64,000 nucleotides of DNA from a virus. The notes under the pieces were generated by a model. The model saw only the letters and a program-made list of their open reading frames with translations. It was not told the origin of the DNA and did no database searches. This document shows, piece by piece, positions 4,992 through 59,497 of this stretch (position 1 is the first letter of the stretch; each line of letters starts with the position of its first letter). The stretch covers positions 1 to 64,000 of IMG/VR virus record IMGVR_UViG_3300037261_000033, one strand, 5' to 3'. The position numbers and the translations under genes were made by a program.

Positions 4992-5825
4992 CTACATCAA
5001 AGCGCGGTGTCTGACAATCTTATCCACCATCCGCGCGTAACCATGCCCGTCCAAGTAAGGATCGATCTTGCTAATTCTTCCGGGCAAGTGATGGAGTATC
5101 TGGCCGTCGCCTAAATAGACGGCGGCGTGCGCGGGAACGGGCGTGCGCGGTAATTGGATCAATAGCACGTCGTGCTTACGCAGGTCGCTTACTTCCACGA
5201 ATCCCGCTTTCTTAAAGTTGTCGAGGTAGAGGTTCTTTCCTTTCATCCACCATTCGTCTTCGCGCTCGAAGTCCGGCAGGACGATCTTTAATTCTTTCTC
5301 GTAATAATCTCGAATGATCGCCCAACAATCGAGAATCCCGTGGACGAATGGCCGCCCGATCAACTCCGCCTTCCAACCTTTCGGGCTGTAGAAGTCCCAC
5401 GCATCCGCAGGCCAGCCGACTATCAGGAACGGTAGATGTTTCGCTTCCGATTCTGTCTTGTCTCCCGGCGACGGCACGGGCGGTTCATTCACGTGGCTAT
5501 GGTAAACGGCGATTATCTCCCATCCTTTGTCTTCCACTTTCCGCCACGCCTTCGGACATGTCCTGAACGCTCTATGCCGCTCCCGTGATAGGTTCGGTGA
5601 ACGGAACGCCCGCTGACGCTTCCCGTCCGTTGCGATGAATCCGCATACTTCCTGCGGCGGCTTATTCCCCTCAAATCCTTCCCGCGCGTGCGCTCGTATC
5701 TCTTCGCGTACTGAATCGATTATCTGACTGCCTTGTAATGTCCGTTTTTTGGCGTCCGTTAACCTTTCGGTCGCTTTCTGAACGGCTGCCCGTCTCTTCT
5801 TGCCTGCCGTGCTGGTTTTAGGCAT
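4992..5825 (-). CDS. K: Tail tip assembly protein (lambda K-like; JAB + NlpC/P60)
   Basis: EVCG and YHSH...PSPGD (JAB); GRPFVHGILDCW and HAAVYLGDGQILHH (NlpC/P60). Confidence 0.93.
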   Translation of the reverse strand: MPKTSTAGKKRRAAVQKATERLTDAKKRTLQGSQIIDSVREEIRAHAREGFEGNKPPQEVCGFIATDGKRQRAFRSPNLSRERHRAFRTCPKAWRKVEDKGWEIIAVYHSHVNEPPVPSPGDKTESEAKHLPFLIVGWPADAWDFYSPKGWKAELIGRPFVHGILDCWAIIRDYYEKELKIVLPDFEREDEWWMKGKNLYLDNFKKAGFVEVSDLRKHDVLLIQLPRTPVPAHAAVYLGDGQILHHLPGRISKIDPYLDGHGYARMVDKIVRHRALM

Positions 5826-40845: not shown

Positions 40846-40932
40846 CGGATGGGGTAGGATTCGAACCTACGGCGCGTTACCGCGCGTCAGTTTTCGGGAC
40901 TGTTGCGATAAACCGGACTCCGCCACCCATCC
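40846..40932 (-). tRNA. tRNA-Ser(CGA)
   Basis: GGATGGG/CCCATCC acceptor, G discriminator, long variable arm, GTAGG-TTCGAAT-CCTAC T arm, loop CC-CGA-AA; no encoded CCA. Confidence 0.85.
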
Positions 40933-56260: not shown

Positions 56261-57259
56261 TTAGAGTTTCAGGATGCGCTGCTTTACGTGTTCCGCAACT
56301 GCTTTCATAAGAAGCGGTGGGACGCTATTACCCATTCTTGATACGGCTCCGCTCCATGTTTTCTCTACATTCCCTTCGTCCGCGAATTTGAAATCATCTG
56401 GAAATCCGAAAAGTCTTTTGTATTCGTTCGTTGTAAAGCGTCGCTTCTCTCGCCAATGCATTGAGCCGTAAAGTCCGATATTGCCATCACTTTTTCTTAT
56501 TGTTGGTGATGGTTTTTCGGGGTTGGCTTTAACCGCGCCGAATCCTTTTACCTCTTTCCGCGCCCCGCTTACGCTCTGGCCGGGCTTGGTAATTTCCCAA
56601 TCAGTGAAAGCTACGTTATTCGAGCATTCCGAAAGCATCCAGTTCCTTTCAGTTTCTTCTATATTAACTTTGCGTAACGCCTCGCTGCATGAAATAACCC
56701 GCGTTACGTTCGGAGTAGGGAGCGTTGCCTCGCCTACTCGTGTTCCTATTACTATGACTCTATTCCGAGCTTGCGGGGTTCCGTAATGCGCGGCGTTGAG
56801 AACTTCCGCTTTTACGTGATAGCCGCTCGCCCGCAGCGATACCATTAGCGCGAGAAACATTGGCTTCATGTGTCCTTTAATAAGCCCCGTAACATTTTCC
56901 ATTACGAAAGTCTTTGGCTTAAGCGCTTGAAGTAGTCGCACGTATTGATCTGAGAGAGTATTTCTTTGGTCATTTAATTTTCTCTTCCCTGCCGTCGAAA
57001 ACCCCTGACATGGCGGTGAGCCGTCAAGCACGTCCAGTTCGCCTTTCTTAACGCCCGCGAGCTTCATGCACTCCGCGCCGCTTAGCTCCTTTATGTCGCC
57101 GTGATAGACCGGCACGCGTGGAAAGTTTAGCTTGAACGTCGCGACCGCGTTATCATCCCACTCAACCGCGAGCAATTCCTTGAATCCCGCCCATTTGTAA
57201 CCAAGTGAACTTCCGCCACAGCCCGCGAAGAGTGAAATAACGGTCGGCTTCCTGCTCAC
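56261..57259 (-). CDS. DNA (cytosine-5) methyltransferase
   Basis: FAGCGG, PPCQGFS, ENV, Q.R.R, GNSV. Confidence 0.95.
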   Translation of the reverse strand: MSRKPTVISLFAGCGGSSLGYKWAGFKELLAVEWDDNAVATFKLNFPRVPVYHGDIKELSGAECMKLAGVKKGELDVLDGSPPCQGFSTAGKRKLNDQRNTLSDQYVRLLQALKPKTFVMENVTGLIKGHMKPMFLALMVSLRASGYHVKAEVLNAAHYGTPQARNRVIVIGTRVGEATLPTPNVTRVISCSEALRKVNIEETERNWMLSECSNNVAFTDWEITKPGQSVSGARKEVKGFGAVKANPEKPSPTIRKSDGNIGLYGSMHWREKRRFTTNEYKRLFGFPDDFKFADEGNVEKTWSGAVSRMGNSVPPLLMKAVAEHVKQRILKL

Positions 57260-57837
57260 CAGCTAAATCCACATTTAGGGCATTTGTGTGAAACTTTTCC
57301 CAACTTCTCTTCATCAACCGGAGTGTTGCTGTCCGGTATCACTAACTTTTTTAGAAGTGCGTCCATTTCTTCTTTATCGAATCCGAGTAAGTCGATGCTT
57401 ATCGGTTTCTGCGCGCCCTGTAATTCAGCGAGCAGCTTCGCAAGCGCAGTGTCGTTAAACTCTCCGCCGTGCCGGTTCGCCGCGATCATTGCCGCCGCTT
57501 CTTTTTGTTTCGGCCAGTCAACTTCGCGGTAGGCGTAGCGTGTTCCGTTCACTTCGCAGTGGCCGTAGGCAACTGTACCGGTCTTATCCGGTTCCTTAAG
57601 CGCCTCTGTAATCGTTACCTTTGTTTCAGGTGAGTTGAAGGCCGCGATTCTTTGATGTCCGCCGACCAACCTTTCCGTTCTTCGGTTTAGAACGATGCCA
57701 CCTAAGTCTCCGAACTCCGCTAATGCTTTCCCTAGCTTTTCAAGTTGCGCCGGGGAAATAAGGCGTGGGTTTTTCGGGTTCGCGTTGAGCGTGGTCAGTA
57801 AGCGCGCGTCCCCCTTTTTGAGCGGCTTCTTTTTCAT
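57256..57837 (-). CDS. ParB-like N-terminal domain protein
   Basis: NPKNPR, FG..GGIVLN, VGGHQR; C-terminal CPKCG. Confidence 0.82.
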   Translation of the reverse strand: MKKKPLKKGDARLLTTLNANPKNPRLISPAQLEKLGKALAEFGDLGGIVLNRRTERLVGGHQRIAAFNSPETKVTITEALKEPDKTGTVAYGHCEVNGTRYAYREVDWPKQKEAAAMIAANRHGGEFNDTALAKLLAELQGAQKPISIDLLGFDKEEMDALLKKLVIPDSNTPVDEEKLGKVSHKCPKCGFSW

Positions 57838-58463
57838 GCGGTCAAGAATTTCTTAAACTCGGCGACAGCCGCCCGGCTCAGCCAAGGATAAATCGAGTTG
57901 CTGCCGTGCCGCATCAGCGGCCCCGCCCATCGGATGTTCAACCGAACGAGCCGCGCGTAGTACTCCATCGCCAGCGCGTGATTTATTTTCATCGCGGCAA
58001 TGAAAGTCTCCGGCGTGTCGATGCGGTGCTTCACCGCGAACGCTTTCATCGCGTCGTGGTTTAGCCACTCGCTGTCAAAGCTCACTTGGAAAATCCCTGT
58101 TTCCGCTCCGGTCTTATGCGCCACGCTCGCAGGGTTTGATTTATCAACGCCTTCGTTCCAGTTCCACGATGACTCGAACCCGGCGTGGACGCGCATCGTT
58201 TCAAGCAGCGCCGCTCTCCGGTGAAGCGCGTTGTCCCATTGGTAGATCGGCGTGCCGCTCGCGTCCTTCCCCACTGGCGTTGCTAAGCTTGATTTGATAG
58301 CCGAAAAGATTTCTACCGGGACGGCGTTCGGCGCGAAGATTTCGTCCGGCGCGTCGCTGCCCCAAGCGATCAGTTCTATCAAGAAACCGTCCGGTGGTGC
58401 ACCCTGCTTTGCTACCTTGGACTTGCACGCCGAAAACTGCCGCGCCGCTTCGTGTTCATTCAT
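57834..58463 (-). CDS. Lysozyme/transglycosylase-like protein (endolysin candidate)
   Basis: GFESS and GIFQ motifs; own promoter TTGACA-17-GACGCT (58472-58500). Confidence 0.5.
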   Translation of the reverse strand: MNEHEAARQFSACKSKVAKQGAPPDGFLIELIAWGSDAPDEIFAPNAVPVEIFSAIKSSLATPVGKDASGTPIYQWDNALHRRAALLETMRVHAGFESSWNWNEGVDKSNPASVAHKTGAETGIFQVSFDSEWLNHDAMKAFAVKHRIDTPETFIAAMKINHALAMEYYARLVRLNIRWAGPLMRHGSNSIYPWLSRAAVAEFKKFLTA

Positions 58464-58508
58464 CTTTTGAGAGCGTCACGCTTTGCTCGCGCGCTGTCAA
58501 TCCGAAAG

Positions 58509-58626
58509 TGGTCGGGCAGGCAGGACTCGAACCTGCGGTGTGGGTTTGTCGCGCCCCAAACGCGATGTCGAACCGCTGACCTACTGGTTATGAGCCAGTC
58601 GCGCTACCAGACTGCGCTACCCCGAT
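58509..58626 (-). ncRNA. Chimeric tRNA-like RNA: 5' tRNA-Met(CAT) part fused to 3' tRNA-Pro(TGG) part
   Basis: D arm GCGC/GCGC, ACTGG-CTCATAA-CCAGT, TCGCG-TTTGGGG-CGCGA, GCAGG-TTCGAGT-CCTGC, ACCA end. Confidence 0.75.
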
Positions 58627-58634
58627 AAAAATAA

Positions 58635-59090
58635 TCACTGCACGACATCGAAGCCGATTACGATCGTACCATTCAACGCCTGCGTCGCGTGCAAGTTCGG
58701 CACGAGGATTACCGCTGAACCGGCTCCCGGCGTTACCGTGGCCCCCGCGAGACTGCCTTGCGAATTTGTTCCGTTCGTAATCGTGACGAAGACCTTGCTC
58801 GTTGCGGTAATCAAGCTGTCCGTCAGCGTGAACGTGTAGGTCGCCAATCCCGCCGTGGTCAGCGCCTCGGTCGTGATGGTTCCGCTATCCGTGTTCAGGG
58901 TCGCGGCGTGCACGGTTGAAACCGCGGTGCCAGTCGTCTTTACGGCTGCGATTCCGCCCGTTCCGACTTTGACCGTCAAGCCGGGCGTCAGCCCCTTGAA
59001 CATTGTCACTTGCGCCTGCGCGTTATCCACCGTCGCAAAACTGATCGCGACGAGTGCCAGTAATCCAACGATGAATGATTTGATTCTCAT
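58635..59090 (-). CDS. Beta-rich decoration-like protein with Sec signal peptide
   Basis: MRIKSFIVGLLALVAISFATVDNAQA|Q; Thr-rich beta domain; promoter TTGACA-17-TAGAAA (59099-59127). Confidence 0.7.
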   Translation of the reverse strand: MRIKSFIVGLLALVAISFATVDNAQAQVTMFKGLTPGLTVKVGTGGIAAVKTTGTAVSTVHAATLNTDSGTITTEALTTAGLATYTFTLTDSLITATSKVFVTITNGTNSQGSLAGATVTPGAGSAVILVPNLHATQALNGTIVIGFDVVQ

Positions 59091-59146
59091 AAGCTCCGTT
59101 TCTAATCCTTCTATGCTCCGGTGTCAACCTTACTTTTCCTCGTCGC

Positions 59147-59497
59147 TTATATTTGTCTCGAAAGAATGTCGTCTCCGTCGTCGAAATGATAAACACAGCG
59201 GAAGCCCATCGCGGCATACGTGGCGCGCGCCGCCTTGTTCTTTTCCACTACGATTAGACTAAGTGATTCCTTTTTCGCGAGGCGCGCGATCCGGGCGCAT
59301 TCCGCGATCATTTTACCGGCCACTCCTTTTCGCCTGTGCCGGTTCGCCACATATACGTTTGACACCAGCGCGTTCGATTTTCCAAGCGTAACAGTAGCGA
59401 CGGCTTTTATGCATAGCGCCGGAGTCACGAGAGTTAATTGCACCGCGTGTTGTCCGTCAATGCGCCGGTCGAATAATATGAGCTTGTCGCGCTTCAT
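59147..59497 (-). CDS. GNAT acetyltransferase
   Basis: NVYV...RRKGVA, N.AA...Y..MGF. Confidence 0.85.
   Translation of the reverse strand: MKRDKLILFDRRIDGQHAVQLTLVTPALCIKAVATVTLGKSNALVSNVYVANRHRRKGVAGKMIAECARIARLAKKESLSLIVVEKNKAARATYAAMGFRCVYHFDDGDDILSRQI

Follow-up and report, generated by a model that had tools for sequence, protein, structure and literature searches.

A tRNA-like gene of 118 nt on the minus strand of a peat-soil phage carries two different anticodon arms, CAU and UGG, its front being related to phage tRNA-Met genes and its back to tRNA-Pro(UGG) genes. We consider it probable, at roughly 60%, that this is a hybrid tRNA gene that arose by illegitimate recombination in a variable slot for small-RNA genes and is no decoding tRNA. 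The closest known kind of element is the hybrid tRNA pseudogene formed by recombination within phage tRNA gene sets, and the present gene is unusual only in keeping both anticodon arms. We know of no other natural RNA with two different anticodon arms on one tRNA frame; the hybrid would be the first, if functional, and would then suggest that phages have a new means of baiting tRNA-directed defences. Should it instead be a scar, the gene offers a clean example of phage tRNA gene recombination and decay. A literature search for natural two-anticodon or hybrid phage tRNAs returned nothing relevant.

Structure of the hybrid gene

The window, that is, the whole stretch analysed here, is the first 64 kb (64,000 nt) of a complete 92,202-bp phage record with direct terminal repeats, and its minus strand carries the hybrid gene and nearly all of the genes. 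The hybrid gene runs from 58626 (index 1) to 58509 (index 118) in the order G-rich 5′ strand, U8-A9, D arm, CAU arm, 17 nt, UGG arm, 12 nt of C and A, T arm, 3′ strand, A and CCA. Its features are as follows.

58509..58626, minus strand: whole hybrid tRNA-like gene (sequence; the Rfam tRNA model gives 43.8 bits for 58512-58624 and places 42 inserted nt in the variable region)
58621..58625, minus strand: 5′ strand of the acceptor stem (index 2-6), paired with 58512-58516; Rfam aligns it with two bases fewer than the opposite strand
58601..58617, minus strand: D arm with a 4-bp stem and, in its 9-nt loop, the GG doublet (sequence, Rfam alignment, folding)
58583..58599, minus strand: anticodon arm 1, with five perfect pairs and a 7-nt loop with U33 and A37; nearest to initiator-like phage tRNA-Met
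58590-58592, minus strand: anticodon CAU, within anticodon arm 1
58567..58586, minus strand: ambiguous junction (index 41-60), where the Met and Pro alignments overlap
58549..58565, minus strand: anticodon arm 2, with five perfect pairs and a 7-nt loop with U33 and G37; the same 17-mer as in six phage tRNA-Pro(UGG) genes
58556-58558, minus strand: anticodon UGG, within anticodon arm 2
58537..58548, minus strand: unpaired 12-nt linker of C and A only, at the position of the Pro variable loop (7 extra bases plus a 5-nt loop in the alignment with the tRNA-Pro gene of L017)
58520..58536, minus strand: T arm of 5 bp with a canonical 7-nt T loop, resembling tRNA-Pro genes (Rfam alignment, relaxed ARAGORN)
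58509..58519, minus strand: 3′ acceptor strand (7 nt), discriminator A (58512) and encoded CCA (58509-58511) (sequence, Rfam alignment)

The arms, the linker and the terminal ACCA had been listed in a sequence-only reading of this DNA, whose description proved accurate in every detail. The 5-bp pairing between the ends that it claimed, TCGGG with CCCGA, was confirmed: five canonical pairs are possible for the 5′ acceptor strand, and four of them had pairing probabilities of 0.77-0.92. Since a C-G-G-G run stands at the start of tRNA-Pro as well as of initiator-like tRNA-Met, the pairing of the ends is a by-product of the consensus of the two families and no evidence of selection.

Against the Rfam tRNA model (RF00005; cut-off 29 bits), the gene had an E value of 1.7e-7, or 1.8e-9 within the genome, and the tRNA-like feature exceeds chance. 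The model took the CAU arm as the anticodon arm, placed the 42 inserted nucleotides in the variable region and deleted two 5′ acceptor positions. The core tertiary positions U8, A14, G18-G19 and the T loop were all retained, as expected because both parents are tRNAs. Repeated words inside the gene were only 7-10 nt long, among them a 7-nt T-loop word present twice. A simple insertion with target-site duplication at this word was rejected, since the T stem can no longer pair once one or the other copy is taken out.

Authenticity of the sequence

Three public peat metagenome runs contained the stretch, one of whose samples may be the source of the virus record. Logan contigs from run X1 (study P1, 2018; 39 kb) and run X2 (study P2, 2020; 50 kb) spanned 57900-59200 with 0 differences, and a low-depth contig from a third peat sample covered 58582-58732 with no difference. 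The hybrid sequence was thus recovered from at least two samples and by two assemblers, 1301 nt being identical in two re-assemblies, with room left by such contigs for a minority form of the locus. The sequence-only reading had considered that two separate tRNA genes might have collapsed into one during assembly. Short motifs are indeed common to tRNA genes and the T-loop word is repeated, but the same 1301 nt were obtained across the junction in two samples and studies, with the low-depth contig of the third sample in addition, and the common words are far below an assembler's k. Such a collapse is very unlikely.

Two parentages meeting at one junction

Index 3-59 was 80-85% identical to annotated tRNA-Met genes of many phages. 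In pairwise comparisons, the Met part scored 76 with the tRNA-Met of L006, a phage whose large terminase is 48% identical to that of the present phage, and 70 with the 'tRNA-fMet' of Caulobacter phage CcrBL9, against 17-34 with other Met genes, the best matches being initiator-like. The alignment with the L006 gene extended over index 3-67 with only two one-base gaps, near its end. Bacterial initiator tRNAs have a CAU anticodon, three G-C pairs at 29-31/39-41, A11-U24 and a 1-72 mismatch; the Met half has the CAU anticodon, U-A at 29-41 and C-G at 11-24, lacks the cognate 3′ strand and does not qualify as one of them. Its sequence suggests an initiator-like tRNA, though no textbook initiator.

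Six tRNA-Pro(UGG) genes that ARAGORN called in viral contigs have exactly the same 17-nt UGG arm as the hybrid. For the T arm, 3′ strand and ACCA, the matches were tRNA-Pro genes of Caulobacter and Microbacterium phages, at 88-90%. Among the six genes, that of L017 was colinear from position 7 to its end (positions 7-78) with index 43-118, and the sole large gap in this alignment corresponded to 7 extra bases in the variable loop of the hybrid. UGG, G37, G72, A73 and the native anticodon arm of tRNA-Pro(UGG) are all present, the 3′ strand ending in G, A and CCA. The Pro part lacks a 5′ strand of its own, its D arm can be read only with one bulge and a non-A21, and its variable loop is 12 nt long.

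The Met alignment, which reaches index 67, and the Pro alignment, which starts at index 43, overlap by about 19 nt (index 43-61), in agreement with the sequence-only reading that the junction can be read in two ways. In one reading it is the variable loop, the 5′ half of the T arm and the T loop of tRNA-Met; in the other, it is positions 7-25 of tRNA-Pro, with U8, A9 and a degenerate, somewhat damaged D arm. Such an overlap is what a crossover in a patch of chance similarity would leave, and the breakpoint may lie anywhere in index 43-61, the alignments allowing no finer placement. Two colinear parental homologies thus meet at one junction, and of the earlier proposal that tandem tRNAs had been fused by deletion, the fusion stood, given these homologies, their overlap and the exclusion of a collapse, while the tandem order of the parents is a supposition.

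Folding and decoding capacity

In a canonical tRNA, a 7-bp acceptor stem is continuous with the T stem, and a single anticodon arm is combined with a variable region that has 4-5 nt or, in class II, is structured. The hybrid has 4-5 acceptor pairs with non-canonical positions flagged, and two anticodon arms with unpaired linkers of 17 nt and 12 nt. Its 3′ acceptor strand needs a 7-nt partner that is absent from the 5′ end; it can form 4-5 pairs with the Met-type 5′ strand, but only in a shifted register. When the CAU arm is taken as the anticodon arm, a 2-nt bulge splits the acceptor helix into four pairs and a single further pair. The Pro reading gives five of seven acceptor pairs, with two adjacent mismatches, and their formation destroys the CAU arm. 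ARAGORN made no call on the gene at default settings, and relaxed scoring gave only a poor 79-nt tRNA-Pro(UGG) at 58509-58587, with the same five of seven acceptor pairs, a poor D arm and the 12-nt variable loop, bearing out the sequence-only reading that neither tRNA is complete alone. Annotators should thus be warned that covariance models call a tRNA with anticodon CAU here and that ARAGORN misses the hybrid gene.

The predicted minimum-energy fold of the RNA was a rod of -42.5 kcal/mol, no better than that of shuffled sequence (z -0.48), and the six-arm cloverleaf, at -35.5 kcal/mol, lay 7 kcal/mol above it; since folding programs often misfold real tRNAs, these energies are weak evidence against tRNA function. 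A candidate pseudoknot of four pairs between the UGG loop and the C/A linker was not significant, being present in 83% of same-composition shuffles and in 8.5% of random 12-mers.

Two forms of a functional decoding tRNA can nevertheless be conceived: a tRNA with anticodon CAU, for Met or Ile2, whose variable region carries the 42 nt as a class-II-like insertion, and a tRNA-Pro(UGG) of 79 nt freed from a 5′ leader. The score of 43.8 bits on the Rfam model, the preserved tertiary core and the relaxed ARAGORN drawing of a tRNA-Pro agree with this possibility, whereas the bulged acceptor helix in the CAU reading, the adjacent acceptor mismatches, degenerate D arm and unstructured variable loop in the Pro reading, and the rejection at the default threshold of ARAGORN speak against it. 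Judging from tRNA geometry, the lack of two pairs in the helix should shift the CCA end from its proper position with respect to each anticodon. With the acceptor helix two bases out of step, charging or decoding by the hybrid RNA is unlikely, and we give very little probability to a working decoding tRNA of either form.

A variable slot for small-RNA genes

The hybrid gene lies between two protein genes whose homologues also flank the slot in L032, an 89-kb metagenome contig and the only syntenic relative found.

58635..59090, minus strand: upstream gene for a 151-aa protein, bordering the variable slot on the left; 8 nt separate its stop codon from the RNA gene, and L032 has a 77% identical homologue
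57834..58463, minus strand: downstream 209-aa gene with no assigned function, starting 45 nt after the RNA gene; right border, with a 64% identical homologue in L032
58494..58501, minus strand: 8-nt motif including the hexamer TTGACA, common to L032, at which homology between the two phages resumes

The 209-aa protein had 868 metagenome homologues with many invariant residues, the closest being 63-71% identical and one of these lying on a 90-kb contig; no Pfam or PDB match was found for it, and a marginal match (E 7e-4) was to a PHROG of no known function. Beyond the genes for the 151-aa and 209-aa proteins, the present phage and L032 are mosaic.

In L032, the slot holds a tmRNA gene (85 bits; L032:4456-4858, plus strand) that starts 8 nt after the homologous stop codon, directly followed by a 188-aa ORF (L032:4870-5436, plus strand) with an HNH_3 endonuclease match just under the Pfam cut-off. 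The third peat sample yielded a 10-kb contig with the exact L032 spacing, 1481 nt between the flanks versus 580 in the present phage, indicating that both forms of the slot live in the same habitat. The slot is thus a variable site holding small-RNA genes and a homing-type endonuclease gene, a hot spot where related phages swap a tRNA hybrid for a tmRNA with its neighbouring endonuclease gene, and breakage and repair in it are plausible. An origin of the hybrid from the L032 tmRNA was rejected, as there was no similarity beyond the T loop, and the hybrid is no tmRNA itself, neither ARAGORN -m nor Rfam giving a tmRNA call in this genome. An attP tRNA fragment or integration remnant was rejected, as no tyrosine integrase (PF00589) match was found in the complete genome.

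The tag peptide of the L032 tmRNA ends in ...ALAA, and the tmRNA gene has no encoded CCA. Around the stop codon of the HNH ORF, perfect 13-bp inverted repeats were seen at approximately L032:5412-5424 and 5474-5486. A C/A-rich 10-nt word at 58540-58549 (minus strand) matched L032:5437-5446 at nine of ten positions, both words lying 48 nt upstream of the shared 8-nt motif; the 38 nt between word and motif are unrelated in the two phages, which leaves the match without explanation.

A consensus promoter scan found no promoter of the hybrid gene's own, and 8 nt and 45 nt separate the gene from its upstream and downstream neighbours, which have the same orientation. This arrangement would suit a processing signal in which RNase P, recognising the T arm and short acceptor helix with ACCA, cuts the 151-aa cistron apart from the 209-aa one, regardless of the material in between, and in L032 another RNase P substrate, the tmRNA, starts at the same distance from the homologous stop codon. 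On the other hand, the conserved promoter-like hexamer downstream suggests that the 209-aa gene may have its own start, and the irregular acceptor helix may be a poor substrate for the putative cleavage. We regard such a processing role as quite unlikely.

Other tRNA-like genes of the lineage

The only canonical tRNA of the phage is tRNA-Ser(CGA), at 40846-40932 (minus strand), which, in contrast to the hybrid gene, does not encode a CCA. Beyond the end of the window, at 81236-81386 (minus strand; L040:1472-1622), the same genome contains another composite tRNA-like gene with a terminal CCA. Its outer acceptor stem is a perfect 7-bp helix followed by U-CCA, and it also has two hairpins and, further in, a degenerate tRNA-like unit whose T arm is canonical; it reached only 17 bits on the Rfam tRNA model, and the T arm is the sole part resembling known phage tRNAs. 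Furthermore, L032 carries an 86-nt tRNA-like gene (L032:3296-3381, minus strand) that scored 43.8 bits on the Rfam tRNA model, is preceded by a strong hairpin and received no ARAGORN call, a 25-nt insertion in its anticodon region forming an extended arm. The second composite gene and the L032 gene with its insertion raise the possibility that the lineage keeps odd tRNA-like RNAs, and such non-canonical RNAs could be retained for a purpose.

One such purpose had been proposed in the sequence-only reading, namely a selected decoy with two anticodons. The gene would then encode an RNA on a tRNA scaffold, in which the acceptor/T minihelix serves processing and stability and the exposed CAU (initiator-like) and UGG (Pro) stem-loops divert, as decoys or sponges, the host enzymes by which those tRNAs are cut or modified. 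Both anticodon arms are perfect and native in sequence, the CCA is encoded in the hybrid gene whereas the tRNA-Ser of the phage has none, a second composite gene ending in CCA lies in the same genome, and phage tRNAs are described as countering tRNA-cutting defences in the account given by PMC11464382. Nonetheless, the hybrid is a single sequence for which no conserved homologue was found, and the slot of the nearest relative, L032, holds something else. No genes for RtcB, RNA ligase or Ro were found in the genome, the acceptor stem is defective, the RNA has no excess structural stability, and the double readability of the junction is a residue of crossover and no design. A Y RNA of the YrlA type was likewise rejected, with 16.9 bits versus 69 in Rfam and no TROVE (Ro) gene found in the genome. 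No positive evidence for a decoy was thus obtained, and we regard this role of the hybrid as unlikely. Slightly less probable still is the broader version, in which the hybrid is a decoy RNA baiting host tRNA-targeting defence enzymes as one of a lineage-specific set that includes the 81.2-kb composite and the tmRNA and long-armed tRNA-like gene of L032.

Search for further copies and parents

The sequence-only reading had suggested looking for the same fusion in other phages, and this search gave a negative answer: patterns for the CAU loop closely followed by the UGG loop and T loop, for the junction and for the 3′ end detected no second copy in 2.9 million viral contigs, and a pattern for the Pro arm and T arm had no match in GTDB genomes. 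Separate intact Met and Pro genes were not present at the locus in any relative found, the sole syntenic one being L032 with its tmRNA and HNH ORF. Relatives identified through the 209-aa protein comprised 11 viral loci with neither tRNA nor synteny, and none was found in GTDB genomes. Those identified through TerL comprised 11 loci with no tRNA near these genes, the only tRNA relevant here being an unlinked initiator-like tRNA-Met in L006. INPHARED protein searches found no cultured relatives.

Proposed origin of the hybrid gene

Considering these results, we propose the following scenario for the hybrid gene as a product of recombination. Illegitimate recombination, assisted by similarity, probably joined two phage tRNA genes. 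An initiator-like tRNA-Met would have contributed the front (5′ acceptor strand, D arm, CAU arm, variable loop and part of the T arm), and a tRNA-Pro(UGG) the back (UGG arm, T arm, 3′ acceptor strand and ACCA). The crossover would have occurred in index 43-61, where the Met variable-loop and T-arm sequences and the Pro D-arm sequence resemble each other, and the variable loop of the Pro part may have gained its 7 additional bases in a second small event. Transcription together with the neighbouring genes is probable, and the resulting RNA would fold into hairpins. In the one metatranscriptome compared with the region, no contig was obtained, which counts neither for nor against expression. We take the gene to be probably a fairly young scar, presumably without function.

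Some observations weigh against this scenario. The four stems are all perfect, and prolonged decay of a pseudogene would have damaged them. The complete tertiary core, the second composite gene of this genome and the L032 gene with its 25-nt insertion likewise count against a mere scar. The sequence-only reading had taken the intact stems as a sign of recency or function; a recent event is compatible with them, and the 7 extra bases need a second event and speak against a scar of a single event. Furthermore, no relative with intact Met and Pro genes at the locus was found, and we infer both the parents and their tandem order.

Comparison with known RNAs

Hybrid tRNA pseudogenes from deletions in phage or prophage clusters resemble the present gene in combining the front of one tRNA with the back of another, in their mismatched acceptor strands, in a junction within a patch of similarity and in being phage-borne. 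They differ from it in that here both anticodon arms survive, the length is 118 nt instead of about 76 nt, an extra 7-nt insertion is present and no intact parental cluster was seen. With canonical and class II tRNAs (RF00005), the hybrid shares the D, anticodon and T arms, the discriminator and the CCA, and its extra material is located at the site of the class II variable arm; however, its 42-nt insertion is a native anticodon arm flanked by long unpaired stretches, and its acceptor is two bases short on one side. Like tmRNA (RF00023), as found in the slot of L032, it is tRNA-like, starts a few bases after the homologous stop codon and has a T arm and acceptor end, but it lacks the G3-U70 pair, the tag reading frame and the set of pseudoknots, and the similarity is limited to a generic T loop.

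Phage T4 produces dimeric tRNA precursors, such as Pro-Ser, in which two complete tRNA units in one RNA are then cut apart. The hybrid similarly has two tRNA units in one phage RNA, but these share one acceptor/T frame and neither is complete. The phage tRNAs that counter the tRNA-cutting defence PARIS are, as portrayed in the account cited above, complete and chargeable and replace the cut host tRNA (PMC11464382). The hybrid would likewise be a phage tRNA-derived RNA that could meet anticodon-directed nucleases, but, unlike the tRNAs in that account, it is probably not chargeable.

Neighbouring protein genes

Two genes upstream of the large terminase gene, a gene with a ParB-like nuclease domain and a DNA methyltransferase gene overlap by 4 nt (56261-57837, minus strand). 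A short ORF for a GNAT acetyltransferase (116 aa) lies at 59147-59497 (minus strand), about 0.5 kb upstream of the hybrid gene. Some GNAT toxins acetylate charged tRNAs, initiator tRNA among them.
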